From: Shigella phage Sf25
DNA: 64,000 nt
Sequence record: MF327009
Reading direction: 5' to 3' (one strand)
In this document: positions 1 to 64,000 of the stretch, piece by piece
Position numbering within the stretch: position 1 is the stretch's first letter
Layout of the letters: every line of letters starts with the position of its first letter
Program-made: the position numbers and the translations under genes
The notes under the pieces: model-generated
Told to the model about the DNA's origin: nothing
Seen by the model: the letters and a program-made list of their open reading frames with translations, nothing else
The model's database searches: none

Positions 1-546
1 TGCATTATCTACGGTAAAATTATAAGACGGAACAACAGAATCCAAATCATTTGGAAGTTTAATAAGATCTTCAAATTTACCACGACCCAAAAGTGGAGCG
101 ATTTTAAACCCAAATGAATTACAAAACGATTCCATCATGTAATCATCAACATAAGTTACATCACCACTTTCGGTAGTGACAATAATGTCAAATACATAAA
201 AATCTTTATCGCCATAATCAACATTCTTCTGAATGCCAGGTCCAGCGAATTCGCCAAAAACTTGATAAGTCACAACAGCTGAAGTTTCCATAATTTCTTG
301 GACAGCTTTAATAGAATCTTCGTAATTCTTTAAAATAATTTCATAACCGAAGAAATCTTCAGCAGGAAGAATCGGTCCAGTACGTTTAGCGCAAGTTACT
401 TTATCACGCTCAATAATCAATGAGAAATTTGTGCCGTGAATCTTTTCACGAGCTACCCATTCGCCGCCAGTCAATCCTAAGCTATAAAGTTTTTCAATAA
501 ATTTAGAGTTGTAATGATTTTCAAGACTGCTATACTTTTTAAACAT
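1..546 (-). CDS. rnlB: RNA ligase 2 (Rnl2), N-terminal part; the gene runs off the window start
   Basis: Reverse-strand frame starting at ATG 544-546; translation [43 protein letters not shown] with ligase motif I KIHGTN; matches recalled T4 Rnl2 N-terminus. Confidence 0.85.
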
Positions 547-555
547 AATTAATCC

Positions 556-834
556 TCAAAATGTAATTTCTAACCAATCACCATCACGCTGATCACTATT
601 GACTTTAAAGCTGAATCCTTCTTTTCTCAGCCAATCACCAATTTCTTCAGTAATCAATTTATCGCGAGCAGTACAATAATAACTAAAATATGTTTTACCT
701 TGTTCAGCTGCTTTATTAGCAAGTTCTGAAAAATCTTTAATAAAACACTCTAGCTTAAACTGTTTACTTTTTAATGCTTTTTCACGTAATTGATTAGCAA
801 AAGATTCATTTTCATAAAGATCATACTGTTCCAT
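556..834 (-). CDS. hypothetical protein (92 aa), 24.x-like
   Basis: ORF track; tightly packed between rnlB and the next ORF. Confidence 0.5.
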   Translation of the reverse strand: MEQYDLYENESFANQLREKALKSKQFKLECFIKDFSELANKAAEQGKTYFSYYCTARDKLITEEIGDWLRKEGFSFKVNSDQRDGDWLEITF

Positions 835-1036
835 TTTTCACCTTTTTATTGATATGTCTTTTTCTATAGACAACTTTTTCTCGAGTTTCAAATTTATTCT
901 TAGCAGTCATAGCTCGAGCCCATAATACAGCCACTTCTTTCGCCTGTAAGTTTAATTCACGAGCAATTTCAATGAATGACTTTCCAGACTCATGAAGAGT
1001 AAACACCACAACCTCAGTTCTCATAATCAATCTCAT
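821..1036 (-). CDS. hypothetical small protein (71 aa); its 5' end and upstream leader lie inside a 202-bp tandem duplication
   Basis: ORF track; a second copy of its first ~38 codons plus leader is present at 1125-1238. Confidence 0.5.
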   Translation of the reverse strand: MRLIMRTEVVVFTLHESGKSFIEIARELNLQAKEVAVLWARAMTAKNKFETREKVVYRKRHINKKVKNGTV

Positions 1037-1326
1037 GTTATCGAGTTGGTGCCATTATATACATCATTTTCTGATTGTGTTTTGTGTGCTTTCAAAATGA
1101 AGAAAGGGGCCGAAGCCCCTTATGTAATACAGCCACTTCTTTCGCCTGTAAGTTTAATTCACGAGCAATTTCAATGAATGACTTTCCAGACTCATGAAGA
1201 GTAAACACCACAACCTCAGTTCTCATAATCAATCTCATGTTATCGAGTTGGTGCCATTATATACATCATTTTCTGATTGTGTTTTGTGTGCTTTCAAAAT
1301 GAAGAAAGGGGCCGAAGCCCCTTATG
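923..1326. repeat. exact tandem duplication, 2 x 202 bp (923-1124 and 1125-1326)
   Basis: The two units read identically, including the hairpin ggggccgaagcccc and the start codon of the 71-aa ORF. Confidence 0.9.
1090..1119 (-). terminator. rho-independent terminator hairpin (GGGGC-CGAA-GCCCC plus U-run) downstream of hoc; duplicated at 1292-1321
   Basis: GC stem with GNRA-type loop followed on the minus strand by a T-rich run. Confidence 0.55.
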
Positions 1327-1327
1327 A

Positions 1328-2395
1328 TTATGGATAGGTATAGATGATACCAGTTTCTAAAGCAGTTTTATGAATGATGTATCCATTACGTGATTCTTGA
1401 ACATCAACTTCTGGATAGTCTTTCATCATCTTCTGAAGCGTATAACGATGCAAGTAGTATTTACTATCTGGATCGTCAGTTTTCCAATCTTTACCTTCTT
1501 CGGTCATTTTTTGGATTTCATCCATAACCCACCAACCACACCAGATGTAAGCTGAAGTACGATGTGGAAGAGGATGAACATAAGGTAATTCACCTTCTGG
1601 CTCTGGAGCAACTTTATCAGTTACCTGAACTTGACCTTCCGCCGTAATAGTTTTGCTATCATAATCAGCAGCAGTAACAGTTGCAGTAACTTCAATAGTT
1701 TGACTTCCAATAGATGAGGTATCAATGGTATATACATTAGTTGACCCTTCTACAGGAGAAGAATCTTTCTTCCATGAATACGCAATTTGCGCTTCTTCTG
1801 GAGCATCAGTGACATTAGCAGTAAATGTAGCCGAAGCATCTTGTTGAACGTTAATAGAAGGAGGAGTCAATGTAACCTGTGGATTCATTGTCTTCTTATT
1901 AACTGTTAATGATACTTCATTCGAAGTAACTTCCTTTTCATTGTAATTTTCAGCAGTTACTTGGGCTACGCATTTAATTCTTTTTACTCCACTTGTAGTT
2001 GGAGTATAGCTAAATGTAGAGTTAGTTTCTCCACCAACTTGTGAATCATCTACATACCACTGATACGTAGCAGATGCGCCTGATGGCTGCGAAGCCAAAG
2101 CAGCGGTAAATTCAACAGCTGTTCCGATTACTCCTTCCGGAGGACTATTAGGAGTTACGGCTAAGGTAGTCGTCTGTGTCTTATTTTGAACTGTGATAGT
2201 TGTACTAATTTCAGCTGTTTCGGGACTACTATCGGCAACTTGATTTGTTGCAACTACTTTAATAGTCTTTTGACCGGCAGGTCCTTTTAATACATAACTA
2301 AAAGTTGCTTCAGCTCCATCTTGTGGAACATCATCTACAGTCCAAGCATATGTAATAGGTCCATCTCCAGTTTGACCACTGGGCGTAGCAGTAAA
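1328..2395 (-). CDS. hoc: Hoc (highly immunogenic outer capsid protein, Ig-like domains); 5' end missing, no ATG/GTG in the open frame upstream of TTG 2098
   Basis: Frame open from 2395 to 1328; translation ...FTATPSGQTGDGPITYAWTVDDV...ASATYQWYVDDSQ...ELPYVHPLPHR...IIYTYP matches recalled T4 Hoc from about residue 22; a TAA immediately precedes F22. Confidence 0.8.
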   Translation of the reverse strand, partial: FTATPSGQTGDGPITYAWTVDDVPQDGAEATFSYVLKGPAGQKTIKVVATNQVADSSPETAEISTTITVQNKTQTTTLAVTPNSPPEGVIGTAVEFTAALASQPSGASATYQWYVDDSQVGGETNSTFSYTPTTSGVKRIKCVAQVTAENYNEKEVTSNEVSLTVNKKTMNPQVTLTPPSINVQQDASATFTANVTDAPEEAQIAYSWKKDSSPVEGSTNVYTIDTSSIGSQTIEVTATVTAADYDSKTITAEGQVQVTDKVAPEPEGELPYVHPLPHRTSAYIWCGWWVMDEIQKMTEEGKDWKTDDPDSKYYLHRYTLQKMMKDYPEVDVQESRNGYIIHKTALETGIIYTYP

Positions 2396-3015
2396 TTAAT
2401 GTAATAAATTAAGCTAAATAATGTTTGGTGTGCAGAAGCATGCTCAAAACTAGTTGGGTGAGATTTCCAATCCGGAGTTTCAGCGATCCATTGATAAATC
2501 CACCAAGGAACAGTACAGAATCCTGGATTTTTTCCAATCAACTGAAGATTCGGGCTAAAGTTTTCCGGAAGAGTAAATACAGACGGCTTTTCAGATTCAA
2601 TAATCTCAGCTACAGCCTGTTCGAATTTTTCTTCAACAAAAGGAGTATCTTCAATCAAAACATCGGTATTTTCAGGAATTTTATCCGTTTCTACTACTTC
2701 AATTTTAATGTCAGATTTAACTGGAGAATCAATCAAAAGTGCTGCTTCTGGATTGACTTCTTCATCGTCATATTTTAATCCCTCTGCAGCATCAGCAGCA
2801 TCAATTAAGTCTTTAATAGATAACCCATCAGTCTCTGGCATAGGTTCACTAGCGAGCTTCTGGAGAGCTTCTTCAATATCAACAACGATATTATCAAAAG
2901 ATTTATTCTTTTTGACCTTTATACCAAACTGTTCAGCATATTCAGCTAATTTAGCTTTAGCTTCTTTGTTATCATCAAGAGCCTTCAGCTCTGCAATATA
3001 ATCTTTATCTATCAT
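2335..3015 (-). CDS. inh: Inh-like protein (prohead protease inhibitor); 3' end reads about 20 codons into the hoc region in another frame
   Basis: 226-aa ORF starting MIDKDYIAELKALDDNKEAKAK; position between hoc and uvsW as in T4. Confidence 0.6.
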   Translation of the reverse strand: MIDKDYIAELKALDDNKEAKAKLAEYAEQFGIKVKKNKSFDNIVVDIEEALQKLASEPMPETDGLSIKDLIDAADAAEGLKYDDEEVNPEAALLIDSPVKSDIKIEVVETDKIPENTDVLIEDTPFVEEKFEQAVAEIIESEKPSVFTLPENFSPNLQLIGKNPGFCTVPWWIYQWIAETPDWKSHPTSFEHASAHQTLFSLIYYINLLLRPVVKLEMDLLHMLGL

Positions 3016-3028
3016 AATATTTCCTCAG

Positions 3029-3036
3029 TATAAATA
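3029..3036 (+). promoter_or_regulatory. late promoter TATAAATA upstream of uvsW
   Basis: Exact TATAAATA about 30 bp upstream of the uvsW ATG. Confidence 0.55.
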
Positions 3037-3065
3037 TAGATATATTTATTACATGGTATTTAGAC

Positions 3066-4577
3066 ATGACTGACATTAAAGTACATTTTTATGATTTTAG
3101 TCACGTGAGAATTGATTGTGAAGAAAGTACATTTCATGAACTCCGTGATTTCTTTAGCTTTGAAGCTGATGGGTATCGTTTTAATCCGAAATACAAATAT
3201 GGCCACTGGGATGGACGAATCCGTCTTTTAGATTATAATCGTCTTCTTCCATTCGGCTTAGTCGGGCAAATTAAAAAGTTCTGTGATAACTTTGGCTATA
3301 AAGCCTGGATTGACCCACAAATTAACGAAAAAGAAGAATTATCAAGAAAAGATTTTGATGAATGGCTTTCTAAATTAGAAATCTATTCAGGAAATAAAAG
3401 AATTGAACCACACTGGTATCAAAAAGATGCAGTGTTCGAAGGATTAGTCAATCGTCGTAGAATTCTTAATCTTCCAACATCCGCTGGTAAATCGTTAATT
3501 CAAGCTTTGCTTGCGCGATATTATTTGGAAAATTATGAAGGTAAAATTCTTATCATTGTTCCAACAACTGCTCTAACAACTCAGATGGCTGATGACTTCG
3601 TTGACTATCGTTTATTCAGTCATGCAATGATAAAGAAAATTGGTGGCGGAGCATCAAAAGATGATAAATATAAAAATGATGCACCAGTCGTTGTTGGTAC
3701 ATGGCAAACTGTAGTAAAACAACCGAAAGAATGGTTCTCACAGTTTGGAATGATGATGAATGATGAATGCCATCTTGCTACAGGAAAAAGTATTTCATCT
3801 ATCATATCAGGTTTAAATAACTGCATGTTCAAATTTGGTCTATCTGGTTCATTACGTGATGGCAAAGCCAATATCATGCAGTATGTTGGAATGTTTGGTG
3901 AAATATTTAAGCCAGTAACGACTTCTAAGTTAATGGAAGATGGACAAGTAACTGAGCTAAAAATTAATAGTATTTTTCTTCGCTATCCCGATGAGTTCAC
4001 TACTAAATTAAAGGGAAAAACTTATCAAGAAGAAATAAAAATTATTACGGGGCTTAGTAAAAGAAATAAATGGATCGCTAAATTAGCTATTAAGCTTGCG
4101 CAAAAAGATGAAAACGCTTTTGTCATGTTTAAACACGTATCGCACGGTAAAGCTATTTTCGATTTAATTAAAAATGAATACGATAAAGTTTATTACGTAT
4201 CAGGGGAAGTTGATACCGAAACCCGCAATATAATGAAAACCTTAGCTGAAAACGGTAAAGGAATAATTATAGTAGCTAGTTATGGTGTATTTTCTACTGG
4301 TATTTCAGTTAAAAATCTGCATCACGTTGTTTTAGCACACGGTGTTAAATCTAAAATTATTGTATTGCAAACAATAGGTCGCGTATTACGTAAGCATGGT
4401 TCTAAAACAATCGCAACAGTCTGGGACCTCATAGATGATTGCGGTGTTAAGCCAAAATCTGCTAATACGAAAAAGAAATATGTTCATTTGAACTATCTTT
4501 TAAAACACGGCATTGATCGTATTCAGCGCTACGCAGATGAAAAATTCAATTACGTAATGAAAACAGTTAATTTATAA
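3066..4577 (+). CDS. uvsW: UvsW DNA/RNA helicase (SF2)
   Basis: 503-aa ORF; Walker A PTSAGKS and DECH box; matches recalled T4 UvsW. Confidence 0.95.
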   Translation: MTDIKVHFYDFSHVRIDCEESTFHELRDFFSFEADGYRFNPKYKYGHWDGRIRLLDYNRLLPFGLVGQIKKFCDNFGYKAWIDPQINEKEELSRKDFDEWLSKLEIYSGNKRIEPHWYQKDAVFEGLVNRRRILNLPTSAGKSLIQALLARYYLENYEGKILIIVPTTALTTQMADDFVDYRLFSHAMIKKIGGGASKDDKYKNDAPVVVGTWQTVVKQPKEWFSQFGMMMNDECHLATGKSISSIISGLNNCMFKFGLSGSLRDGKANIMQYVGMFGEIFKPVTTSKLMEDGQVTELKINSIFLRYPDEFTTKLKGKTYQEEIKIITGLSKRNKWIAKLAIKLAQKDENAFVMFKHVSHGKAIFDLIKNEYDKVYYVSGEVDTETRNIMKTLAENGKGIIIVASYGVFSTGISVKNLHHVVLAHGVKSKIIVLQTIGRVLRKHGSKTIATVWDLIDDCGVKPKSANTKKKYVHLNYLLKHGIDRIQRYADEKFNYVMKTVNL

Positions 4578-5082: not shown

Positions 5083-5090
5083 ATTTATAC
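5083..5090 (-). promoter_or_regulatory. possible late promoter (TATAAATA on minus strand) upstream of the 55-aa ORF
   Basis: Plus-strand tatttata about 27 bp upstream of the minus-strand start at 5056. Confidence 0.35.
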
Positions 5091-13400: not shown

Positions 13401-13454
13401 TCCTCATGTTATGTCAGTAAGATTACTATAACACAACACGAGGGACTTGTAAAC
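13401..13454 (-). promoter_or_regulatory. early-promoter cassette (-35 GTTTAC, -10 TATAGT, RBS); 54 bp identical to 29491-29544
   Basis: Minus-strand GTTTACaag(18 nt)TATAGT then GAGGA; exact copy upstream of alc. Confidence 0.5.
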
Positions 13455-19309: not shown

Positions 19310-19573
19310 TGTTCATCCTTCAGAGTTTGATTTACAGCTCTATTATAAATCAATTCATCATTAAGCTCAGTTAAAGACCTATGATATGTAGTTCTAACTT
19401 TATTTCCTTGCATCCAGTGCTTGATATAAATGAAACCTTGCTCTACACATTTTTAAAAATTCGTTCGTCTTTTTGAGCTCGGAATTCTGGATTGCATCTA
19501 AAGAATTGATTTACGTGACCGTAATCACGCGTAGTATTACCTTCATTTTCATAAATAGTGTGAACGACAAACA

Positions 19574-25485: not shown

Positions 25486-26006
25486 GTTGATCCCAGCTCC
25501 TTACTTTCAACGTTTTTAACTAATTTGACAGAAACTAATTCGGCATCTTGGGTAATCATTACCGGGCCTTCTTCATACTCTTCAAGATATTCTAGAGCTT
25601 TCTTTTTAGCTTCTTCCTTCGTATCAGTTTGAGCATAGATATAGAACATACAACCAGTAATACCTACTACTTTCCACTTAATTTCTTTATCAGTTTTAAT
25701 TTCAAATTTACTGATAGAGTCATCTTTTTGAACTTCTTCGAAAAAATAATATTCTGACATATAAGTAATTGAAAATAACGGGCTATCTTTATAAGATTCG
25801 CCCATTACATCAACAGCTTTATACCAGCAGTCATCAATTTCACGTTTAATGCTAATAACATTTTTCGCAGAATCTATTTTTACTTTAAATGAATTTTCCC
25901 CAATAAACTTGGCAATTCGTTTATTAGCCCCGCAAGTTTCATTAAAAATATCTTTATATCCAGCTTTAAAGCGATAAACCTTATCTTCTTCAAACCATTT
26001 GCTCAT
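25479..26006 (-). CDS. hypothetical protein (175 aa), cd.3-like
   Basis: ORF track. Confidence 0.45.
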   Translation of the reverse strand: MSKWFEEDKVYRFKAGYKDIFNETCGANKRIAKFIGENSFKVKIDSAKNVISIKREIDDCWYKAVDVMGESYKDSPLFSITYMSEYYFFEEVQKDDSISKFEIKTDKEIKWKVVGITGCMFYIYAQTDTKEEAKKKALEYLEEYEEGPVMITQDAELVSVKLVKNVESKELGSTC

Positions 26007-28196: not shown

Positions 28197-28639
28197 TTAT
28201 CCTCTTTTAACTCTTGACGATAATAACATATCATAGTTTTCTGATCATGTACATATCGTTTTACATCATTAAGCCAAATGCGAAATTCCTGGGAATCTTC
28301 AAATGGCATACCGACCCAAGCTTTACCATCAATAACTTTAACTTGCCAGGATAGTTTAGCTTCATCGTATGACTTTATTTGTACTGGCCAATTAGGATGA
28401 ACTGTTTCTTTCTTTACTTCTAGAGGCTTTGTCGAACAACCAACTAGAAGACCAATAGATAATATTACCCAAGCTTTACCATCAATAACTTTAACTTGCC
28501 AGGATAGTTTAGCTTCATCGTATGACTTTATTTGTACTGGCCAATTAGGATGAACTGTTTCTTTCTTTACTTCTAGAGGCTTTGTCGAACAACCAACTAG
28601 AAGACCAATAGATAATATTACTGCTGATAGTTTAATCAT
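28187..28639 (-). CDS. putative lipoprotein, expanded from about 99 to 150 aa by an in-frame 153-bp tandem duplication
   Basis: Signal/lipobox-like LSIGLLVGC-S; the 51-aa block ILSIGLLVGCSTKPLEVKK...DGKAWV is repeated exactly, giving two lipobox copies. Confidence 0.5.
   Translation of the reverse strand: MIKLSAVILSIGLLVGCSTKPLEVKKETVHPNWPVQIKSYDEAKLSWQVKVIDGKAWVILSIGLLVGCSTKPLEVKKETVHPNWPVQIKSYDEAKLSWQVKVIDGKAWVGMPFEDSQEFRIWLNDVKRYVHDQKTMICYYRQELKEDKCK
28314..28619. repeat. exact tandem duplication, 2 x 153 bp (28314-28466 and 28467-28619), in-frame
   Basis: Identical nucleotide units. Confidence 0.9.
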
Positions 28640-29490: not shown

Positions 29491-29544
29491 TCCTCATGTT
29501 ATGTCAGTAAGATTACTATAACACAACACGAGGGACTTGTAAAC
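29491..29544 (-). promoter_or_regulatory. early-promoter cassette upstream of alc; 54 bp identical to 13401-13454
   Basis: Same -35/-10/RBS cassette as at 13401-13454. Confidence 0.5.
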
Positions 29545-29547
29545 AGC

Positions 29548-31135
<1,588 letters not shown>

Positions 31136-32383: not shown

Positions 32384-34897
32384 TCATAATTTACAGGATG
32401 AACAATCTTCAGCTTTTGGAGTTTCTATTTCATAATCATCAGTACCAGAACCGTCACGGGTATTATGATAATAGAAATTTTTTCCGCCAAAATACCAAAA
32501 ATATAAAAGGTCATCAATCATTATTGACATTGGAACCTTTCCTTTTGGAAAAATCTGCGGGTCATAATATGTATTAGCTGAAGCTGATTGACATACCCAT
32601 TTCAGCATAATAGCTACTTGCGTAAGATAAGGTTTATTGCCTTTCTTAGCTAATTTCCACGTATAATCATAGAGGTCTATGTTATGCTCAATATTGGGCA
32701 CGACTTGATTAAAGGAACCCTCTTTTGATTCTTTAACAGAGACTGGTCCACGTGGAGGCTCGATACCGTTTGTACTGTTAGAAACTTGGGAAGATGACTC
32801 ACATGGCATAAGTGCTGATAATGTGCTATTACGGATGCCAAAGAGCTTAAGGTCTTCCCGCAGCGACGACCAGTCACAAACGTATTTTGGAGCTGCGATT
32901 TGGTCAATCTTTTTATTGTACCAGTCGATAGGTAATTCGCCTCGAGACCAACGAGTGTCTGAATAATATTCGCAAGGTCCTTTTTCTTTGGCGAGCTTAA
33001 TGGATGCTTTAATGAGTCCATACTGTAATCTCTCAAATAGTTCATGTGTTAAATCGTTAGCATCTTCATAAGAAGCAAAATTACTTGCCAGCCAAGCTGC
33101 ATAGTTAGTAACACCTACACCAAGATTTCGACGCTTTTTAGCTTTTTCTGCTTCAGGAACTGGATATCCTTGGTAATCCAAAAGATTATCAAGAGCACGA
33201 ACTTGGACTTCTGCCAATTCATTAATTTTATCTTGGTCTTGCCAATCAAAGTTATCTAACACAAATGCAGATAACGTACACAATCCAATTTCAGCATCAG
33301 GACTATTCACATCATTTGTTGGAATAGCAATTTCACAGCACAAGTTGCTCTGACGAATAGGTGCCTTTTCACGAATAAACGGAGTATAGTTATTCGTATT
33401 ATCTATGAACTGTACATAAATCCTTGCTGTTCCTGAGCGTTCAGTCATGAGCAATTCAAATAGTTCACGGGCTTTAATACGCTTTTTACGAATATTAGGG
33501 TCTTTTTCTGCTGCTTCGTATAATTCACGGAAACGGTCTTGGTCTTTAAAATAAGAATAATAAAGCTCGCCACCCATTTCATGCGGACTGAACAAAGTAA
33601 TGTAATCGTTCTTTCCGAATCGTTCCATCATCAAATCATTCAGCTGAACACCATAATCCATATGACGGATACGGTTTTCTTCTACACCTTTGTTATTTTT
33701 CAAAACGAGAAGATTTTCAACTTCCAAATGCCAAATAGGATAATAAGCAGTAGCAGCGCCGCCACGAATTCCACCCTGTGAGCATGATTTAACAGCAGTC
33801 TGAAAATGTTTCCAAAAAGGAATAACACCAGTATGGCGTACTTCACCTGTGCCAATCTTAGAACCTTCGGCACGAATCATACCAACGTTAATACCAATTC
33901 CATAATCCATATGACGGATACGGTTTTCTTCTACACCTTTGTTATTTTTCAAAACGAGAAGATTTTCAACTTCCAAATGCCAAATAGGATAATAAGCAGT
34001 AGCAGCGCCGCCACGAATTCCACCCTGTGAGCATGATTTAACAGCAGTCTGAAAATGTTTCCAAAAAGGAATAACACCAGTATGGCGTACTTCACCTGTG
34101 CCAATCTTAGAACCTTCGGCACGAATCATACCAACGTTAATACCAATTCCAGCGCGTTTGGAGATATATTCAACAATTGAAGCAGAAGCCTTATTGATAG
34201 ACTTTAATGAATCACCTGCTTCAATAACAACGCATGAACTAAACTGCCGAGTTGGAGTACGGCAACCAGCCATAATAGGAGTTGGCAGTGAAATCTGTCG
34301 AGTAGATACTGCTTCATAAAAACGGATAACGTGTTTTAATCTATCAACAGGTTCATCTTGATGCAATGCCATTCCAATAGTCATAAATGCAAACTGTGGA
34401 GTTTCATAAATTTGACCAGTGGTTTTATCTTTAACTAGATATTTTTCTTTTAATTGCATCGCCCCGGAATAAGTAAATTCCATATCCCGCTCGTGCTTAA
34501 TTTTTGATTCTAAAAATGTAATTTCTTCGGCAGAATATTTTGACAACAATTCAGGGTCATATTTACCTTCATTTACACAGTAAGAAATGTGGTCAATAAA
34601 TGAACGTGGTTCATACTGCCCATAAACATGCTTACGAAGAGCGAACATTAAACAGCGTGCAGCTACATATTGATAATCAGGCTCTTCAACTGAAATAGAA
34701 TTCGCAGCAGCCTTAATTACAATGGTTTGAATGTCATCAGTTGTCATTCCATCACGGAGATATGATTTAATATTTTCATATAATTCATAAGGATCTACAG
34801 ATGTTCCTTCAGCTGCCCAAGATAAAACTTTAATAATTTTTTGCGGGTCAAAGCTCTGAGAAACACCACTACTTTTGATAACATTAATTAATTGCAT
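32384..34897 (-). CDS. nrdA: ribonucleotide reductase large subunit carrying an in-frame 249-bp tandem duplication (837 aa versus 754 aa expected)
   Basis: MQLINVIKSSGVSQSFDPQKI...; 83-aa block GIGINVGMIRAEGSKIG...NRIRHMDY repeated exactly. Confidence 0.9.
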   Translation of the reverse strand: MQLINVIKSSGVSQSFDPQKIIKVLSWAAEGTSVDPYELYENIKSYLRDGMTTDDIQTIVIKAAANSISVEEPDYQYVAARCLMFALRKHVYGQYEPRSFIDHISYCVNEGKYDPELLSKYSAEEITFLESKIKHERDMEFTYSGAMQLKEKYLVKDKTTGQIYETPQFAFMTIGMALHQDEPVDRLKHVIRFYEAVSTRQISLPTPIMAGCRTPTRQFSSCVVIEAGDSLKSINKASASIVEYISKRAGIGINVGMIRAEGSKIGTGEVRHTGVIPFWKHFQTAVKSCSQGGIRGGAATAYYPIWHLEVENLLVLKNNKGVEENRIRHMDYGIGINVGMIRAEGSKIGTGEVRHTGVIPFWKHFQTAVKSCSQGGIRGGAATAYYPIWHLEVENLLVLKNNKGVEENRIRHMDYGVQLNDLMMERFGKNDYITLFSPHEMGGELYYSYFKDQDRFRELYEAAEKDPNIRKKRIKARELFELLMTERSGTARIYVQFIDNTNNYTPFIREKAPIRQSNLCCEIAIPTNDVNSPDAEIGLCTLSAFVLDNFDWQDQDKINELAEVQVRALDNLLDYQGYPVPEAEKAKKRRNLGVGVTNYAAWLASNFASYEDANDLTHELFERLQYGLIKASIKLAKEKGPCEYYSDTRWSRGELPIDWYNKKIDQIAAPKYVCDWSSLREDLKLFGIRNSTLSALMPCESSSQVSNSTNGIEPPRGPVSVKESKEGSFNQVVPNIEHNIDLYDYTWKLAKKGNKPYLTQVAIMLKWVCQSASANTYYDPQIFPKGKVPMSIMIDDLLYFWYFGGKNFYYHNTRDGSGTDDYEIETPKAEDCSSCKL
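33651..34148. repeat. exact tandem duplication, 2 x 249 bp (33651-33899 and 33900-34148), in-frame within nrdA
   Basis: Identical nucleotide units; boundary ambiguous by 3 bp. Confidence 0.9.
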
Positions 34898-34915: not shown

Positions 34916-35271
34916 TCGTCTTTAAACAATCGGTTAACTATATGAGCTATTATATCACCATGACACGGCTTTGGTTTACATGTGCATCCTAGCCTCATTC
35001 CACGTAAAGGCTCTAAATGTGCTTTAGTTATTTCTCCGGATTTAATTCGACGTATAAAATCTTTTTTGAATAATTCAATGGCAGCCTCCCGGCTCGTCTT
35101 TAAACAATCGGTTAACTATATGAGCTATTATATCACCATGACACGGCTTTGGTTTACATGTGCATCCTAGCCTCATTCCACGTAAAGGCTCTAAATGTGC
35201 TTTAGTTATTTCTCCGGATTTAATTCGACGTATAAAATCTTTTTTGAATAATTCAATGGCAGCCTCCCGGC
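34916..35271. repeat. exact tandem duplication, 2 x 178 bp (34916-35093 and 35094-35271), just upstream of the nrdA start
   Basis: Identical units; unit length not a multiple of 3; replaces the 3' end of the upstream ORF. Confidence 0.9.
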
Positions 35272-38440: not shown

Positions 38441-38887
38441 CTACTTTTTGAAAGTTTTTCGCAAAAGTTCAATGATTTCATCTACATTGTTTTCGTCAAC
38501 AATGCAGTGAATTTTTGTTACGCCAGAAACCTTGTCTATGACTTCATCTACATTGTTTTCGTCAACAATGCAGTGAATTTTTGTTACGCCAGAAACCTTG
38601 TCTTTGACTTCATCTTCTTCAGAAGTCGGTTCTTTATACTCACGAAAACAATGAAATTCATCTTCGCAAATTTCTAAAAGTCTATCTTTGAGGTAAAAAT
38701 GCTTTCCATTTGCGCATTCAATGTGTTTTACTGCTTTATATCCATTAGCGACGGAAACTTCTTTAACTTCAAACCATCCGCCATTATCTCGAATAGCTTT
38801 AACGATTGATGAATTAGAACGTGGGCTATAATTAATAAATGTATCAATAAGTCTTGGAACAAGTTCATACTTTTTGCCAATATACAT
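38441..38887 (-). CDS. hypothetical protein (148 aa) with an internal 22-aa tandem repeat
   Basis: ORF track; ...VKDKVSGVTKIHCIVDENNVDE VIDKVSGVTKIHCIVDENNVDE.... Confidence 0.45.
   Translation of the reverse strand: MYIGKKYELVPRLIDTFINYSPRSNSSIVKAIRDNGGWFEVKEVSVANGYKAVKHIECANGKHFYLKDRLLEICEDEFHCFREYKEPTSEEDEVKDKVSGVTKIHCIVDENNVDEVIDKVSGVTKIHCIVDENNVDEIIELLRKTFKK
38472..38615. repeat. near-exact tandem repeat, 66-bp unit, about 2.2 copies, 2 mismatches
   Basis: Position i matches i+66 across 38472-38549 except at 38476 and 38538. Confidence 0.8.
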
Positions 38888-40212: not shown

Positions 40213-40310
40213 TTTTATTTCCTTTTTAATTTAATTAACAGTTGGTGCTATGACGATGTATGACCTCATAGCTGGTCAGTGAGATAATTATAATCTATTT
40301 ATAATAAGCA
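40213..40310 (-). promoter_or_regulatory. gene 32 5' leader: AU-rich translational operator (UUAAAUUAAAAAGGAAAUAAAA-AUG) and a TATAAATA late-promoter match at 40296-40303
   Basis: Sequence read directly; gp32 autoregulation through such an operator is established for T4. Confidence 0.5.
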
Positions 40311-48134: not shown

Positions 48135-51100
48135 ATGGCTACTTTAAAACAAATACAATTTAAAAGAAGCAAAACTGCAGGTCAACGTCCTGCTGCTTCA
48201 GTATTAGCCGAAGGTGAATTGGCTATAAACTTAAAAGACCGTACTCTTTTTACTAAAGATGACTCGGGAAATATTATTGATTTAAGCATTTCTGCCGGTG
48301 GTAACATTAGTGGAAATATCACTCAAAATGGTGATTATTTACAAAACGGCACGTATAATCTTAATGGAAATCAGTTTGTTTATGCAGGAAAGTATATTGA
48401 ATTCTTGCCAAAAACTGCTGGAAATGGTGCTTGGGCAAATCAGCACACAAATAAAGCTCCAATTTTCACCGATTTGAGTTCAACTACTTCAACTTCTGAA
48501 TATCATCCGCTAATTAAACAACGTTATAAAGATGGAACGTTTTCATTAGGGACTTTAGTTTCTGAAGGCTCAATGAAGATACACTATATCGATGAAACTG
48601 GCACTTCAAAATATTGGACTTTCCGACGTGATGGTGGTTTTGTTGTTGATAGTGGTAGTTTAACTGTTACTGCTGGAAACATATCTGCTTCAGGCAATAT
48701 TAATTCGGCATCAGGGGTTGTTTCAGCTCCTCAAATTAATACAAAAACCATTGTTTTAGATACAAAAGCATTTGGACAATATGATTCGCAGTCATTAGTT
48801 CAGTATGTTTATCCTGGCACTGGCGAAACAAACGGTATAAACTATCTTCGTAAAGTTCGCGCAAAATCAGGTGGTACAATTTATCATGAAATAGCTTCAG
48901 CTCAAAGTGGAAAAAGCGATGAAATTTCGTGGTGGACTGGAAATACAGCCGTTAATAAACAAATGGGTCTTCGTAATGATGGTGCAATGGTATTACGTCG
49001 TTCACTTGCTATTGGCACAATTACTACAGATGAAAACGTAAATAACTATGGATCTGCTGGAGCAATGGGAGAAAAATACATTGTTCTTGGAGATGCGTCA
49101 ACTGGACTAGCTTATAAAAAGACAGGAGTTTATGACTTAGTTGGTAGTGGTTTATCTGTTGCTTCTATCACTCCCGACAGTTTTCGTAGTACCCGTAAAG
49201 CAATTTTTGGACGTTCTGAAGACCAAGGCGGTACATGGCTTCTTCCTGGTCAAAACGCTGCTCTTCTTTCAGTTCGTACAGATATTGATCAAAATAATAA
49301 CGGTGATGGTCAAACTCATATTGGATATAATAGTAACAGCAAGTTTTATCATTATTTTAGAGGCAGAGGCCGAATGGCTGTTGGAATGGCTGAAGGTCTT
49401 ATTGTTGAGCCTGGAATTTTAGATATTAAAACTGGTTCAAATACTGTTTCTATTAGAGCTGATGGCGGAATTTCATCTACTCAGCGTCTTTCATTGCAGA
49501 ATGGTATATTTTTATCTTCTGACGGAAATAACAACGGTATATCGTTTAAAGCTTCTAGCAGTATAGATGGAACTAAAACTCTTAATTGGGATGCTGGTAC
49601 TCGTGCAGGTCAAAACAAAAATACAGTAATTTTAAAAGCATGGGGAAATTCATTTAATACAAGTGGTGGAACTGATAGACATACTGTATTTGAAGTTTCT
49701 GATTCGCAAGGATACTACTTTTATGCTCAACGTACTACCCCTGCATCCGGTCAAACAGTAGGTCCTATTAATTTTAAATTTAATGGTACTGTAGAAACCG
49801 GTCATATCAATGGATTAGGTAATATTACTTTATCTGGGGCAGTTATAGCAGATTCTGCTAATATTAAAGGACCGCTAAAAATATCTAATGCTAATACAGC
49901 TGATGCTTTTAGAATATGGAACGCTGAATATGGAGCCATTTTCCGTCGTTCAGAAACATCATTGCATATTATTCCTACACTTAAAGATGCAGGGGAAAAT
50001 GGTGGAATAAGTAATCTTCGCCCATTAAGTATTGATCTTTCAAACGGATTTGTGCAAATGCATCATTCTCTTTCTGTGGGGAATACAGTAAGAACGAATG
50101 GATTGTTTGCTGTGGATACTTCAGCTGCTCTTGTTGCAATTAACAGATGTTCCTATTGTGAAACAAAGATACGTTCAAGGGAATAGCACCTATTCATTAG
50201 GTACTTTAATTAATGGTGGTGATTTCCGTTTACATTACCATGAAGGCGGTGACAGTTCTTCAACAGGTGCAGTTATAAAAGATATTTCCTGGGAATTTAA
50301 ACGTAATGGTGATTTCTATTCGCCAGGTCGTTTACGTACAGGAAATATCTATATTGGAACTGATGGTAATATCACGGGTGGTTCTGGTAACTTTGCTAAC
50401 TTGAATACAACTTTAAACCGTAAAGTTAATTCTGGTTTTATTACTTATGGAGCAACTGCAGGTTGGTACAAGTTTGCAACAGTAACAATGCCTCAAGCTA
50501 CATCAACCGTTTCAATTACAGTCACTGGCGGAAATGGATTTAATTCTGGATCATTTAATCAGTGTGCAATTTCTGAAATTGTTCTTCGTACAGGAAACAA
50601 TAATCCTCTGGTGATACATATGACATTTATGTTAATATGGGAACATATGCTAATCAGTTGATATTTAACTATAGTTCTGTTGATAATGCCACAGTTCAAA
50701 TTATTGGCGCATTCAGTTCAGCTCAAAATCCTGTTGATGCATTGCCAGAAACATATGTTAAAGGTCAGGTAGCAGATGTATTGACTAACTTAGTTGATTC
50801 TGGAAAAACGAAGCGTTTTGTTGCTGAATCTGAAATAGCTATTAATAATCAAACTGGATTACGTATTACGAGTAATGGTGATAAATCTGGTTCAAATTCA
50901 GTATTATTCAGAAATGATGGATCAGCGTTTTATATTCTTTTAACAGATAAAAACGCAGCAGATGGAAATACGACTGCCACAGAAGGAGATTGGAATGGTA
51001 AACGTCCTTTCCAAATTAATATGACTTCTGGTGAAGTAACATTCGGAAATAATATTAATATTTCTGGAAACGGAAGCATTACTTGGACAAAAGCCGGAGC

Positions 51101-51770
51101 AAACCCTAGAAATATGAGAATATTTCATGCAGGTGATGCTTCTCGTGGTAACCGTATTGAAATCGCAGATGATACTAATTATATTGCTTACTTTGAAAAA
51201 ACTCCAGGTGGAGCTAACCGCTTTGTAGTTAATGGTGCTACTGTAGCTGGTGTTAATCAAATGAATTCATTTGGTATTAACATCAATAACGCGCTTGGTG
51301 GAAATAGTATAGCATTTGGTGATAATGACACGGGTATTAAGCAAAACGGCGATGGATTATTAGACATTTATGCGAATGGTGTGCAAACGTTCCGTTTCCA
51401 AAACGGTGATTTGTACTCATATAAAAATATAAATGCCCCAAACGTTTATATTCGTTCTGATATTCGCTTAAAATCTAATTTCAAACCTATCGAAAATGCA
51501 CTTGATAAAGTTGAAAAACTCAATGGTGTCATTTATGATAAAGCTGAATATATCGGTGGAGAGGCAATTGAAACTGAAGCGGGTATTGTGGCTCAAACGT
51601 TACAAGACGTTTTACCAGAAGCCGTCCGTGAAACAGAAGACAGCAAGGGTAATAAAATACTCACTGTTTCTTCTCAAGCCCAGATTGCTCTTCTGGTTGA
51701 AGCTGTGAAAACGCTTTCTTCTCGTGTAAAAGAACTTGAATCTAAACTTCTTGAATCTAAACTTATGTAA
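48135..51770 (+). CDS. 37: long tail fibre distal subunit gp37, T2-type with C-terminal intramolecular chaperone domain; reading frame broken twice (about 50140-50160 and 50604-50615)
   Basis: Three consecutive ORFs in three frames (48135-50186, 50098-50661, 50637-51770), all gp37-like: [37 protein letters not shown]...; [34 protein letters not shown]; C-terminal SDIRLKSNF...VKELESKL. Confidence 0.8.
51456..51767 (+). other. peptidase S74-type intramolecular chaperone / self-cleavage domain at the gp37 C-terminus
   Basis: Motif RSDIRLK followed by a coiled-coil-like tail; domain assignment by recollection of the family. Confidence 0.55.
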
Positions 51771-51800: not shown

Positions 51801-52498
51801 ATGGCAATTGTAGGTGTTCCTGGCTGGATTGGTGAATCTGCCGTGAATGAAACAGGACAGCGTTGGATGGATGCTGCAATGAGAGCAGTCCGTGTTTCAG
51901 TTCCCGGTTGGATGAGCTCAATGGCCGGACAATCTAAAGAAGTATATTATAGCATTGGTGCTAGTAATTCTTATAATAAAGATACATTAATAAACTGAAT
52001 GCATACGTGACACTTAATATCAATTCAGGCGTGCATGTTTGGGGCCGTGGCGGGAATGGCGGAAATAACTCTGCCGGTGGAGCAGGAGGAACTGCAATAA
52101 ATAATGGAATTGGAACTAGATTGCGTATTAACAACAATGGTGTTATCGCAGGAGGCGGTGGCGGCGGTGGAGGCGGATATTATTCTCCTTTTTCACAAAT
52201 GAAATTGACTTTTGGCGGTGGCGGCGGTCGTCCATTTGGTGCTGCTGGCGGGTCTGCTAATATGGAACAGGGCGCTACTGCTGGTACTATTTCTGCACCT
52301 GGTAAAGGGTCTGTCAATGGTATCTATAATGGCGGGAATGGCGGTGATGCTGGTGCCGCAGGTGGTAAATGTAATATTCGTGGGCAAGGATCAGAATATA
52401 ACGGCGGTGCGGCCGGTAAAGCTGTTACTGGTAATGCTCCAACTTGGACTAAGGTTGGTACAATATATGGCCCTCTGATATTCTATTTGGTGTTCTAG
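51801..52498 (+). CDS. 38: gp38 receptor-recognising adhesin (T2-type, glycine-rich islands); split by a frameshift near 51980-51996
   Basis: ORF 51801-51998 (MAIVGVPGWIGESAVNETGQRWM...) and ORF 52007-52498 in another frame with GGGGGGGGG islands; the second frame is open back to 51980. Confidence 0.75.
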
Positions 52499-59299: not shown

Positions 59300-59857
59300 T
59301 TAAATGGAAAGATACCATCCGTTGTAGTTGCTTTTTCTTACAACCTTACGAAGGTCTTCTCTATCACCGATGAACTTCGGAGTGTACTGGATGACACCTG
59401 GGTGAATTTCTTTAGTGTTGAATATAATTATACAGTCAGCGACCTGATGATTCAGAATGGGCCCTAGATTTATTCCAGAACCATATGGATACTCTCCGCT
59501 GCATCCTGTTGTTACAGAAATCCAACGTGAGTCAGTTTGATGTGTCTTAACTTCTACACGAAGCCCGCAGTATCTTGGATGCGCCAATACATCCCATGCG
59601 TATGTATACGGGTCATTAACATCCTCTTGGCCTTTGTTAACATATCCGCTTAGCCAATCTGCTACAAAAAACTCTGCGTACACCGCGATACGACATCTTT
59701 CAATAACTTCTGCTTTATCCTGATTTGGATTTTGTTTTAAAGAGTATCTTGCTGTATCAGCAATTTTGACCTTCATTTCACTAGTCAAGTCATTGTTCGA
59801 TAGGGTAAATGTCGGAATCTGAAATAGTCTCTGTAAACCCGGATTCGTTTTCTGCAT
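59300..59857 (-). CDS. denB: endonuclease IV
   Basis: 185-aa ORF MQKTNPGLQRLFQIPTFTLSNNDL; length as T4 EndoIV. Confidence 0.8.
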   Translation of the reverse strand: MQKTNPGLQRLFQIPTFTLSNNDLTSEMKVKIADTARYSLKQNPNQDKAEVIERCRIAVYAEFFVADWLSGYVNKGQEDVNDPYTYAWDVLAHPRYCGLRVEVKTHQTDSRWISVTTGCSGEYPYGSGINLGPILNHQVADCIIIFNTKEIHPGVIQYTPKFIGDREDLRKVVRKSNYNGWYLSI

Positions 59858-60119
59858 TTAGACTTTCCTTTTTACCGCTGAGATAAGCGTTATACACTTT
59901 AAGAGTACCGTAGTAAATTCGGTCATTTTCATCTAAAGACACACGGTCAAGTTCATCAAGTTCCTTTTTATCCATGACTATAACATCATTGCAATAAAGA
60001 AACCCAAGTTTTTCGTGACCAAACTCAAATTTATTACAGTACACAATATTAGCGTGATGATTTCCGTGCAGTTTAATCTCTTTTATGTCGGAATCACCGA
60101 TATTCATACAATAAATCAT
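59790..60119 (-). CDS. hypothetical protein (109 aa); overlaps the denB start by 68 nt
   Basis: ORF track; the long overlap is atypical and makes the 3' boundary uncertain. Confidence 0.4.
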   Translation of the reverse strand: MIYCMNIGDSDIKEIKLHGNHHANIVYCNKFEFGHEKLGFLYCNDVIVMDKKELDELDRVSLDENDRIYYGTLKVYNAYLSGKKESLNAENESGFTETISDSDIYPIEQ

Positions 60120-60153: not shown

Positions 60154-60157
60154 TATT

Positions 60158-60380: not shown

Positions 60381-61319
60381 TTATTTAAATTGCTCAGTAA
60401 CGTCTTCAACTACTTCGTATTGGCAAGTACGCATTTTAGCATCGTTGTAATCAATCGGAATTGATACTACATCACGCGGATGTACTTTAACTTTTACAAC
60501 TCGGCTAGTTGAACTACCAAAGTGACGAATATAAGATTTAGAACACACATGCAGACCACGAGAACAAGTTTGTGTATCATCGTCGTTCACACGAGTACGT
60601 GGCATTTTAACTACTTTACCAGGACTGTTATCAAAGGTATTTGAGTGACAATCAAAGTAATTGCTACGAACTACTTTCCAAGCATAGAAGTAACCATCTT
60701 CTGTAATTTCAATATCGTTTGCTACCAAGAAATCAAAGAGTCGAGATACCGCTTTTTGGCTTGGGTTTTCCAGCAGATTTTCCAAGAACGGAAAATAAAA
60801 TTCAAAGTTTTCACCTTTTTCCATCGAATCGAGAATACGATCAACTAAACCAGACCGTAATTCGATATTTTGATAGAACAAGCTTCCGCCTTCAATTCGA
60901 ACATCGCCGGAAATATATTTTTCAACAGCGCGACGAACATTAATTTTTTGTGCAGCTTCTTCCAGCTTATCCGCTACAAGCAGATTAAGAATTTCCTGGA
61001 AGTTTGAATGAGTATTAGGTGTTGCGTTATAAGTTACACCGTCGACAGTAATTGAAATGAATTTTTTAGATGCATTCCAAATAATGTCAGATTTAGCAAC
61101 TGGAGCAATAACTGCATCGCTATTAACTTTAACTGTAATATCACCGCTAATAGTAACTTTAGGGCGTTTAGCTTCTTCAGCATTTTTCAAAACACGACGG
61201 ATTGTATCAACCGATACATCCTTCCAATAAGCCAATTCCTGTTGGGTGTAATTACCGCTTGAATACAGTTTAACAATTTCAGCTTGTTCGTTTTTGGTCA
61301 GGCATTTAATATTGTACAT
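60381..61319 (-). CDS. rIIB: rIIB membrane-associated protein
   Basis: 312-aa ORF MYNIKCLTKNEQAEIVKLYSSGNYTQQELAYWKDVS; matches recalled T4 rIIB. Confidence 0.9.
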   Translation of the reverse strand: MYNIKCLTKNEQAEIVKLYSSGNYTQQELAYWKDVSVDTIRRVLKNAEEAKRPKVTISGDITVKVNSDAVIAPVAKSDIIWNASKKFISITVDGVTYNATPNTHSNFQEILNLLVADKLEEAAQKINVRRAVEKYISGDVRIEGGSLFYQNIELRSGLVDRILDSMEKGENFEFYFPFLENLLENPSQKAVSRLFDFLVANDIEITEDGYFYAWKVVRSNYFDCHSNTFDNSPGKVVKMPRTRVNDDDTQTCSRGLHVCSKSYIRHFGSSTSRVVKVKVHPRDVVSIPIDYNDAKMRTCQYEVVEDVTEQFK

Positions 61320-61330
61320 AATTTTCCTTA

Positions 61331-63757
61331 TTAGGCCGCAAGGGCCTTCATAGTTTTAGCGATTTGAGAAACTTCATCATCACTTAAAGAGTTGCGATAA
61401 CCGATGAAGTCGGAAACAATACGGAATTTCTTGGTAAACTCAGCAACCATTTTATCACTGTTTTTTGAAGCATTATTTGATAATACATCAAAAAGATTAG
61501 TTACTGTCCAGATGTCATGACCGATGGTACCTTTTCCACCGTTGAAATATACGCCCCGCAATGAACTAACTATATTAGCGAGTCGTGTATATTCTTCAGA
61601 AACTTCATCTGTACTGAAGTACTTCATCATAAAATCTAGTTCAGGATACTTGATAATTTTATCAATATATCGTTGAGCTGAACTTGAATAACCTACGTAC
61701 TTATCATAATCTACATCATCAAAAGCATCTACATATAAATCACGCAGAGTTTCAAAAATACATTGGCACTGACCGAGTTCTTTTACCTTTTTCTGCAAAA
61801 GCGGACGAATAACATAAAATTCATTAATGCCAATAAGATTAGCCATACGAATCAAAATATTCATAGATGGATGACAAAGAGATGTAGTACCATCCATAGA
61901 GAAAATATCAGAACGATGCATATACGCTACATAACCAGTAATTTCATCTGCTTCTGATGTGAGCGTAAACAGTTCCTCTTTTTCCCATCGCCCATCTTTA
62001 ATTTCAAACTTAAATGCTGTAGCAGCTTTAGGACGAGGAGCTTTACTTTTAACTACCTTTGGAATATAGCTTTTAACTAAAGCTTCAATTTCTGACAAAT
62101 AATGAATGTTAACTTCATCACTTTCAAACATCGCCATAATATCAGGAAGTAAATCAATCTGCGATTCTACTTCTGGATTAATAAACAGAAGACGCTCATT
62201 GTGATGAATATTCAAAGTGTTATTAAATTCACTATCATCTAACGCATGTGCTAATCCACGAACAATATTAACACGATTTTTAATATTATCAATAACGATA
62301 TTAATTTTTGTTGTATTAATACCAAACAGACGATAACTTGATGCAACGGCTGAAGTTTCATGACTTTGCTTAATGCGTTTCAGTCGAGGGTCAAGATTTA
62401 CTTCATACACAACTCCTGCATTGCATAACTTACTGTCAGGTTCAAACATGCTCTGCATCTTTTTATATGACAGATTTTTAGTCGTGAATTTGACTGAATT
62501 ACTAATCATATAATCTCGAGCAGAATATCCCATCTTCATCAATTCACGATATGTGTGACGAGGAGATGTAGATTCTTTAAATCGTTTTACATCTTCATTG
62601 AATGCCTTCTCACTAAGCTCTTTAACACGCTCAATAATATTTTTACGAGTACGATCATCTAGTGAAAGAGCTTCGCGTGATGGAGCAATATCAAGTGAAC
62701 CCATTGGAAACTTAATGTAATTCACTTCATTGCGAATGCTTAGCCAGTTACGGTCTCTAATAACACCATCGATAGGATAAACAATACCGCCATAGATAGC
62801 ATATAATCCACCACGATCAGGCCAGTATCTTTCTGGATTTACACCATAATAATCATCAAAATCAGGAAAATAATCAATTTCAATAATATTTTTACGAGTA
62901 CGATCATCTAGTGAAAGAGCTTCGCGTGATGGAGCAATATCAAGTGAACCCATTGGAAACTTAATGTAATTCACTTCATTGCGAATGCTTAGCCAGTTAC
63001 GGTCTCTAATAACACCATCGATAGGATAAACAATACCGCCATAGATAGCATATAATCCACCACGATCAGGCCAGTATCTTTCTGGATTTACACCATAATA
63101 ATCATCAAAATCAGGAAAATAATCAATTTCGCGGTCAAGACCATTAATGATAGCCAAATCTTTGAACGGTCGCATGATATAAGAAACTTCATAAGCAAAG
63201 TTTCTAAAGTCTTTTTCTTCAACTGGAACTACGATTTCAATACCAGTTTTATCATCTGGACCCATTTCTTTTACGAATGTAGGTTTAATCTGTGGGCCAT
63301 CACCATCCATGTAAGCTACATAACCACGAATTTCACCTTTATGATACGAAGTAATACTAAACGTATCAGTATAACTAAACGGAGATTTAGAACCTAAACC
63401 AAATCCGCCAATAAAGTCATTAGATTCAGCCTTAGATGAACTGAAGTATGAATTATACAGCCCAGGAGAATTATCATCACCCTGAATATCAAAATCACTC
63501 ATACCCGGACCAAAATCTCGACAAACAAATCGTGGATCTAATCGTCCTGGAACTTGAATGATAAATTTTTCAGGATTTCCATTAAGTGCATGAGCATCAA
63601 TCATGTTAGTAATCAATTCACGGACTACTGCGCGAATCTTGTTTGTATACAAATCAGATGACAGAATTTTAAATACTTTAGGATTTGCTGCGATGCTAAA
63701 TGCTTTTGATTTAGAACCATTGCCAAGAATTGTTTCTTTTTCAGTGGTGATAATCAT
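61331..63757 (-). CDS. rIIA: rIIA protein carrying an in-frame 249-bp tandem duplication (808 aa versus 725 aa expected)
   Basis: [20 protein letters not shown]...; 83-aa block [24 protein letters not shown]...TRKNIIE repeated exactly. Confidence 0.9.
62631..63128. repeat. exact tandem duplication, 2 x 249 bp (62631-62879 and 62880-63128), in-frame within rIIA
   Basis: Identical nucleotide units. Confidence 0.9.
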
Positions 63758-63767
63758 AATTTCCTCA

Positions 63768-63971
63768 TTAATTCATATTACGCTTAATAACTTCAGCAAC
63801 TTCTAGTAGTTCATCTTTAGTTGCAGTGTCGGATTGAATTTTATCTCTAATATCTTTAAAGCGGTTTTTAAATTCTTCGGCTTCTCCCATATCGAAAAAG
63901 CGTTGAATGATTCTATATTCTCGATGAACTGCTTTATCAAAAAGTTCTAAATTTACTTTATATGATTTCAT
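63768..63971 (-). CDS. hypothetical protein (67 aa), rIIA.1-like
   Basis: ORF track; immediately upstream of rIIA. Confidence 0.45.
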
Positions 63972-64000
63972 TTCAATATCCTCATTTGCCCAATTAATTA

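Follow-up and report, generated by a model that had tools for sequence, protein, structure and literature searches.

Exact tandem duplications and clean deletions in a T4-like segment of the Shigella phage Sf25 sequence are private and probably properties of the sequence record

The stretch of DNA analysed here (hereafter, the window) comprises 64,000 nucleotides of sequence record MF327009, from Shigella phage Sf25, and is a T4-like segment with the gene order rnlB to rIIA.1. Along this segment, six exact tandem duplications and ten clean deletions, as well as several smaller changes, are scattered through genes and control regions (Table 1). Megablast comparison of the window, in three chunks, with 50,697 phage records returned approximately 1,000 matching records per chunk, and at least 80% coverage of each 25-kb chunk is reached by 472–474 records. 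The top match was Shigella phage Sf24 (NC_042078 / MF327008), which is 97.6–97.8% identical to the window and collinear with it throughout, and positions 31000–97000 of Sf24, along with their annotation, were used as the main comparison sequence. The two phages share the gene order across the 64 kb, a long gp37 of 1287 amino acids (aa) and a T2-type gp38 adhesin. In contrast, Sf24 is without every duplication and deletion of the window, carries segG and the tandem pair gp121/gp122, neither of which occurs in the window, and is without the 175-aa open reading frame (ORF) that the window has at 25489–26004; the window, in turn, differs by a hoc allele and a hypervariable gp37 patch of its own.

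The original prediction, made by a reader of the letters alone, had listed seven tandem duplications, six of them exact and one, of 66 bp, with 2 mismatches. Tandem Repeats Finder and a repeat finder returned exactly those arrays at the sizes given, and both the exactness of the six and the two mismatches of the seventh were confirmed. Exact repeats of 150–250 bp cannot arise by chance in 64 kb. The six exact duplications add up to 1,196 duplicated bp with zero divergence between the copies, in a lineage that is 2–3% diverged from its nearest relatives, which supports the earlier view that such undiverged duplicates are either very recent events or artefacts.

All events were compared with 21 local references, namely Sf24 (whole window), TadeuszReichstein (1–25 kb), PinkRuby and teqsoen (both gp36 to arn), PP355090.1, and 16 genomes or metagenome contigs, of which eight have an identical NrdB (20–43 kb) and eight an identical Ndd (47–64 kb). 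The coverage provided by these references is two over 1–20 kb, 10 over 20–43 kb and 9–11 over 47–64 kb, amounting to 2–10 of the 21 at each event site. Unique anchors on both flanks served to determine the net sizes in each reference, and the position of every junction was fixed to a single base. In addition, database-wide junction probes drew 423–699 matching records each and were judged on the best records, the exception being the gp37-to-t region, for which only four records had full coverage.

At gene 24.3, an intact copy of the gene is kept beside a 44-aa partial copy, the 202-bp duplication having 0 bp of junction homology and being found in neither Sf24 nor TadeuszReichstein. The duplications in 30.9, pseT.2, nrdA and rIIA correspond to net gains of 165 bp against 10 of 10 references, 153 bp against 9 of 9, 249 bp against 9 of 9 and 249 bp against 9 of 9, respectively. 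The nrdA.1 duplication is a net gain of 178 bp against eight of nine references, the ninth carrying an unrelated homing-endonuclease replacement. The nrdA junction, used as a probe, matched 514 records, and the best of these, although 100% identical to each half of it, all needed two pieces and spanned 252 bp; similarly, the best of 423 records matching the rIIA junction all needed two pieces, with spans of 252–253 bp. In both cases the span is that of a gene without the duplication. A short exact duplication of 15 bp in gp37 was not found in the three closest gp37 alleles (Sf24, PinkRuby and teqsoen), and it may belong to the artefact class or may be natural.

The lesions that had been reported in hoc, the 33/59 pair, gp37 (twice), gp38 and the holin gene t are all real deletions, of 70–173 bp. 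Missing from that list, and hit all the same, were gene 31 and the control region between genes 26 and 51; further events that it did not contain are the −1 frameshift of 30.1, the 15-bp gp37 duplication, and the deletions at stp/ac and ndd.2a/ndd.4. The hoc/inh deletion leaves hoc without a start and inh with a foreign C-terminus. A probe made of window positions 800–3100 matched 699 records, and all of the 25 best needed three pieces with a span of approximately 2,231 bp, which is the length of the 2,301-bp query once the 202-bp duplication is taken out and the missing hoc/inh segment is put back. The 29-bp deletion takes the translation and late-transcription signals of genes 26 and 51, and in T4 record M77695 this very stretch bears the annotation of the ribosome-binding site of gene 26 and of TATA boxes of late promoters; among 501 records matching the probe across it, the best ones, including T4 and T2 at 100% flank identity, span 169 bp, that is, 140 + 29. 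The gene 31 segment is kept in 10 of 10 references, and the stp/ac and ndd.2a/ndd.4 segments are each kept in 9 of 9. Gp59 and gp33 are intact in 9 of 9 references; in the window, they are joined in frame into a fusion of 271 aa, whose gp59 part consists of residues ~56–217.

Five junctions lie in the gp37-gp38-t region. The first gp37 deletion has 0 bp of microhomology at its ends and is not in Sf24, PinkRuby or teqsoen. As the two gp37 deletions sum to 243 bp, the frame is restored downstream of the second, and the 461 bp in between are read out of frame; gene 37 is thereby broken into three ORFs. At the t junction, all covering references (those we numbered L011–L018, L020 and L021, and Sf24) break at window position 52469/52470, and the holin is intact in all eight of L011–L018. 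All four records that fully cover the gp37-to-t probe need five pieces.

Table 1. Duplications, deletions and the 30.1 frameshift in the window (a slash marks the two bases that flank a deletion).
Event	Size	Position	Strand	Gene and effect
Exact tandem duplication	202 bp x2	923-1124 and 1125-1326		gene 24.3 codons 1-34 and 100 bp upstream
Exact tandem duplication	165 bp x2	22472-22801		gene 30.9, in frame; product 113 aa vs 58 aa
Exact tandem duplication	153 bp x2	28314-28619		pseT.2 (spanin-family ORF), in frame; product 150 aa vs 99 aa
Exact tandem duplication	249 bp x2	33651-34148		nrdA, in frame; product 837 aa vs 754 aa
Exact tandem duplication	178 bp x2	34916-35271		inside nrdA.1; frameshift near C-terminus, shortly upstream of the start of the overlapping nrdA
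Exact tandem duplication	249 bp x2	62631-63128		rIIA, in frame
Exact tandem duplication (CTTGAATCTAAACTT)	15 bp x2	51735-51764	+	gp37, in frame, +5 aa, two codons before stop
Tandem duplication, 2 mismatches	66 bp x2	38469-38600		frd.2, in frame; product 148 aa vs 126 aa
Deletion	133 bp	2395/2396		hoc codons 1-21, intergenic spacer, last ~19 codons of inh
Deletion (AGCTCCTTTATTTATCATATTTATAAATA)	29 bp	6817/6818		between divergent genes 26 and 51; loss of the Shine-Dalgarno sequence of gene 26 and of late-promoter TATAAATA
Deletion	72 bp	23431/23432		gene 31 (co-chaperonin) last 10 codons and stop, downstream spacer; product 101 of 111 aa
Deletion	173 bp	40809/40810		gene 59 N-terminal ~55 codons; gene 33 last 3 codons and stop
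Deletion	173 bp	50146/50147	+	gene 37; frameshift, gp37 stops after 683 of 1,287 aa
Deletion	70 bp	50607/50608	+	gene 37
Deletion	103 bp	51997/51998	+	gene 38 (adhesin); frameshift, product 65 of 261 aa
Deletion	71 bp	52469/52470	+	gp38 stop, spacer with t ribosome-binding site, holin t codons 1-9
Deletion	134 bp	57630/57631		C-terminal part of stp and ac codons 1-32
Deletion	130 bp	58625/58626		ndd.4 fused to ndd.2a remnant; fusion ORF 62 aa
Frameshift, T5 vs T6 in all relatives	-1	19450-19454	-	gene 30.1; product 43 of 89 aa

Comparative analysis thus revealed that the events are private to the window. All covering references break at the same window positions and with the same net size, no large event was found in any covering reference among the 21 or in the best probed database records, and none of the best matches shares the hoc-region events, the four gp37-t deletions, the nrdA, rIIA or frd.2 duplications, or the 29-bp deletion. 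The original prediction had named the occurrence of the same structures in related phages as the observation that would make them ancestral; the search was made, and neither the local references nor the best deposited records contain them. The explanation that the structures are ordinary variation, normal for this lineage and odd only when set against T4, does account for some of the differences from Sf24, as the ~100 bp at 5089, the absence of segG and the 175-aa ORF are common to other phages, as are the single gp121 copy and the 30.2 frameshift, and the hypervariable gp37 patch is also natural. It does not extend to the listed events, none of which (0 of 18) is present in any reference or best database record, and the affected genes are intact and at standard length in all relatives (gp59 217, gp33 112, gp31 111, spanin 99 and holin 218 aa, and NrdA 754 aa in references without an intron). 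We consider the probability of this explanation to be close to nil.

Those natural differences were themselves tried as events and dropped. The ~100 bp at 5089 differ from Sf24, and other relatives have the same state as the window; the same is true of the absence of segG, the 515-bp insertion at 25489–26004 and a 44-bp insertion at 22928. The 175-aa ORF at 25489–26004, which has no Pfam hit and is positioned between cd.2 and cd.3, occurs in about half of the relatives and not in Sf24, and both this ORF and the absence of segG (whose site is window 40276–40310) are ordinary cassette variation. The gp121/gp122 difference was dropped because relatives also have a single copy. In Sf24 (L002, 27903–28497), gp121 and gp122 form a diverged tandem pair, annotated as mutually similar, which is a genuine natural tandem duplication; the window has a single copy at 59793–60119, several relatives have one copy and others have none.

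The damage falls on genes and signals that a T4-like phage requires. T4 genetics places genes 31, 33, 37, 38, 26 and 51 among the essential ones, and lysis requires t. Earlier, genes 33, 59, 37, 38 and t had been described as needed for growth or lysis; this holds for 33, 37, 38 and t, and gene 59 is better described as important and not strictly essential. In the 112-residue gp33, the epitope that binds the sliding clamp is the extreme C-terminus (PMC2988020). Because the deletion at 40809/40810 takes the last three residues of gp33, the clamp-binding end is lost. By a hand estimate, essential genes or their control regions are struck by about 7 of the 16 large events, and essential sequence makes up about 37% of the window, so that no depletion is seen. 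The window does not carry the intact genes 31, 33, 37, 38 and t and the intact 26/51 signals of a viable wild-type genome. With essential genes and control regions wrecked at once, we agree with the original prediction that no viable wild-type genome could have this sequence as written, and a replicating lineage could not carry the full set of lesions.

The breakpoints of the six exact duplications and ten deletions are indistinguishable from random positions. Junction identity at the duplications is 0, 1, 2, 3, 1 and 2 bp. The sum of 9 compares with 4.7 ± 2.6 (P = 0.08) in a null in which breakpoints for events of equal size were placed at random in Sf24; each of the ten deletions has 0–1 bp, with a sum of 4 against 7.3 ± 3.1 (P = 0.19). 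Homology beyond chance at the junctions, as a repeat- or microhomology-mediated origin would leave, was found only at frd.2 and at none of the exact duplications or deletions. The sizes include tied maxima, 249 bp twice among the six duplications and 173 bp twice among the ten deletions, each with a probability of about 3% under a uniform model, and these ties hint at a size cap, although such a small number of events does not suffice for fitting a generator. Clustering of the events is not significant (at most four large events in 2.4 kb, P = 0.2), and only one of the ten deletions has a length that is a multiple of three. An excess of in-frame duplications (six of eight) was considered as a sign of selection and set aside, as it falls to four of six (P ~0.1) once two small natural-type events are excluded.

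The two gp37 deletions were also suspected to be the edges of a recombined mosaic block, as the 461 bp between them are only 86–88% identical to the references. This was ruled out, since the divergence is confined to 50175–50358 and both junction flanks are near-identical to PinkRuby. Relative to PinkRuby, the patch at 50175–50358 has 56 substitutions in 184 bp, with a bias towards codon position 3. For the 461 bp around it, no database identity exceeds 88%, and the patch has the look of a new fibre allele; a search at the protein level was uninformative, as it returned two distant matches only and missed even Sf24.

The 66-bp duplication in frd.2 behaves differently. In all references, the two copies of an imperfect direct repeat stand exactly 66 bp apart (TCAATGATTTCATCT ... 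TCTTTGACTTCATCT), with 12 of 15 positions identical, a level of identity that occurs at an offset of 66 in a fraction of 1.5e-4 of random sites. The junction copy in the window, TCTATGACTTCATCT, is a hybrid of both repeats, and its two mismatches to the upstream repeat are both bases of the downstream repeat. Because the junction is a hybrid between pre-existing repeats at a 66-bp offset, the event is probably a genuine slippage or unequal-exchange duplication. It is also private, since the best of 497 records align in two pieces and span 145 bp, that is, 211 − 66. The seven duplications, which had been presented as one set, hence remain a set of six exact ones, with the 66-bp case as a different, slippage-type event. 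Compared with slipped-strand or unequal exchange, only the frd.2 duplication lies exactly between the copies of a short direct repeat, whereas the six exact duplications and ten deletions have 0–3 bp of junction identity, as random breakpoints do.

Two frameshifts also stand apart from the large events. The T5 allele of 30.1 was found in none of 494 records, in a genome with only 0.6% of its bases in homopolymer runs of at least 6, and it is a slippage or sequencing-type change of another class than the large events and no random edit. Another −1 frameshift, A6 to A5 at ~19825 in 30.2, yields a 210-aa product that PP355090.1 encodes identically, and on this match the 30.2 frameshift is a natural allele. 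PP355090.1 was considered as a parent of the window on account of this exact frameshifted product and was rejected, as its overall identity to the window is only 92–96%.

If the lesions were physically real, the window would come from a defective or laboratory-mutant T4-like genome, or from a defective population maintained by a helper, which had undergone many illegitimate-recombination events. Duplication as such is well within the reach of phages: the gp121/gp122 pair of Sf24 is a case, at least one genuine slippage duplication is present in the window itself, and four of the six exact duplications are in frame. Tetart and colleagues are also said to have described, in 1996, a tail-fibre duplication in T4 gp37, which we know through a citing paper. 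In EfV12-phi1, an adaptive in-frame tandem duplication arose in a tail-fibre gene (PMC6365445). Such cases resemble the 15-bp gp37 duplication and the in-frame 66-, 153-, 165- and 249-bp duplications of the window in having head-to-tail coding copies. However, the known adaptive duplications are single, selected, carried by viable phage and restricted to the receptor-binding fibre, whereas those of the window are scattered over 30.9, pseT.2, nrdA, nrdA.1, rIIA and 24.3, beside lethal deletions, and its gp37 is not an intact fibre with an added segment but carries two frameshifting deletions as well as the 15-bp duplication.

More generally, a physically real origin would require about 17 private events in 64 kb, many of them lethal at once, and a single such genome could not propagate; nor would complementation mend so many lesions in one molecule. 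Short-repeat homology is expected from the T4 deletion literature at breakpoints formed by slippage or illegitimate recombination, and the breakpoints here are without it. No load of point mutations accompanies the events, and not one of them occurs in any relative. To our knowledge, nothing described so far resembles so many simultaneous lethal lesions. We therefore regard this explanation as very unlikely. One specific form of it, a non-autonomous T4-like genome of the defective-interfering kind, kept by a helper phage or made by a defect of replication or recombination, appears highly improbable; in that case, the loss of the N-terminus of the gp59 helicase loader might be the candidate defect, promoting homology-independent template switching. 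We know of no description of such a form for T-even phages.

The sequence between the events is of a quite different character. Among 1,750 coding substitutions relative to Sf24, 1,221, 314 and 215 fall at codon positions 3, 1 and 2, respectively, with a transition/transversion ratio of 1.9, and genes untouched by the events are full length with 96–100% protein identity to those of Sf24. Because the divergence is biased to codon position 3 and the unaffected genes are intact, the backbone is natural: it is a genuine Tequatrovirus lineage and not a scrambled copy of a known genome. Both features of membership in Tequatrovirus, collinear gene order at high identity and a synonymous bias of divergence, were found. 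An exact probe specific to the gp37 patch of this lineage had 0 matches in IMG/VR, JGI metagenome contigs and GTDB genome contigs, and one exact duplication-junction probe had 0 matches in IMG/VR. No record exists of the exact gp29 or gp34 protein, of the truncated gp37 or of the gp33-gp59 fusion; since gp29 and gp34 are intact and yet missing, the lack of records for the lesion products is uninformative. The Sf24-like lineage was thus previously unsampled in the collections searched, its nearest genome being 97.7% identical. Its hoc gene is distinct as well: the retained part (1331–2395) has 90% amino acid identity to Hoc of Sf24, its DNA is 95.8% identical to that of TadeuszReichstein, and the genes flanking hoc are 99–100% identical to those of Sf24, indicative of a distinct hoc allele.

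Taken with the random-like breakpoints, the private status of the events and the wrecked essential genes, we propose, with a probability of about 85%, that the approximately 17 operations are properties of the sequence record and not of the phage, that is, errors or edits. A genuine Sf24-like parent segment with a few natural private mutations would have been the starting material. Some 17 copy-or-cut operations, independent of homology and blind to selection, of bounded size and at arbitrary coordinates, would then have been imposed on it: six exact tandem duplications (153–249 bp), ten clean excisions (29–173 bp) and possibly the 15-bp duplication. These operations would not have passed through phage replication under selection. 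The 66-bp frd.2 duplication, the 30.1 homopolymer −1 and the 30.2 frameshift are outside this artefact class. That no replicating genome ever carried the events is inferred, and so is the record-level process behind them. The original prediction had left the choice among assembly or consensus errors, a defective or mutant population, and deliberate editing; that range of causes is supported, and the evidence here favours a record-level or in-silico origin over real DNA.

Within the record-level reading, one possible source is a faulty build, with consensus errors or, more specifically, an assembly or finishing artefact in which pieces were joined end to end, with untrimmed overlaps giving the exact duplications and unfilled gaps giving the deletions. 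A single process would then yield both types of event and the exact identity of the copies; every size is below ~250 bp, on the scale of a read; the gp37-gp38-t region, where five junctions crowd, is variable among strains and of the kind in which assemblies fragment; and the single private homopolymer −1 could be a sequencing error. On the other hand, pieces of 250–470 bp would be needed in some places and of 9–12 kb elsewhere, De Bruijn assemblers make no junction k-mers that are missing from the reads and leave overlaps of a fixed k rather than of 153–249 bp, the affected regions are not repetitive, and, as stated above, the clustering is not significant. The remaining sequence is of high quality as well: only one private coding homopolymer indel was found in the 64 kb, which is little noise of the type left by poor long-read assembly. 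We consider an assembly origin possible but rather doubtful.

Simulated or deliberate in-silico edits are favoured within the record-level reading, because only two simple types of operation, arbitrary coordinates, bounded sizes with repeated maxima and clean intervening sequence were observed. Simulated structural variants, or joins of unmerged overlaps, would share with the window the exact copies, the clean excisions, the arbitrary coordinates, the repeated size maxima and the disregard of reading frames and essentiality; they differ in that no runs of N, vector sequence or marks of contig ends occur in the window. The present sequence evidence cannot tell assembly error from editing.

Several observations weigh against the record-level reading. 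The unedited parent was not directly shown, as the source genome was not found in the collections searched. The window has genuine slippage-type mutations, and the parent lineage hence does yield private indels. The argument from tied maxima depends on the assumed distribution of sizes. In addition, five events are located within 2.3 kb of the hypervariable gp37-gp38-t cassette, which may reflect an assembly problem or biology, and four of the six exact duplications have lengths that are multiples of three, a possible hint of selection, but with P ~0.10.

Other repeats in the window belong to a different category. An exact 54-nt repeat, at 13401–13454 and 29491–29544, 16 kb apart, was considered as a planted copy and rejected, as Sf24 has both copies at 53 of 54 positions. 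This repeat lies upstream of alt.-3 and alc and on the minus strand resembles an early promoter with a ribosome-binding site. Direct repeats of 64–98 nt with 61–80% identity were observed at 22372, 38401, 39184, 55852, 58729 and 59236 (TTGATAG...GTAAAC...TTTTTGAAA), and one pair of them runs on into a GC-rich hairpin. They look like cassettes with a T4 early promoter or a terminator that recur from one gene block to the next.

In all likelihood, nothing on phage function can be learned from the lesions, which are best classed as not being a real biological feature. Their importance is one of data hygiene, as annotators would call false pseudogenes, false fusions (gp33-gp59 and ndd.4-ndd.2a) and false domain duplications (NrdA, rIIA, spanin and 30.9), and a non-functional host-range cassette may be falsely deduced. 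If the junctions were physically real, a T-even genome would be documented with a load of rearrangements, independent of homology, that has no precedent. What is real and usable is a previously unsampled lineage close to Sf24, in which gp37 has a new hypervariable patch, together with a new allele of hoc and a clean case of repeat-mediated duplication in frd.2.

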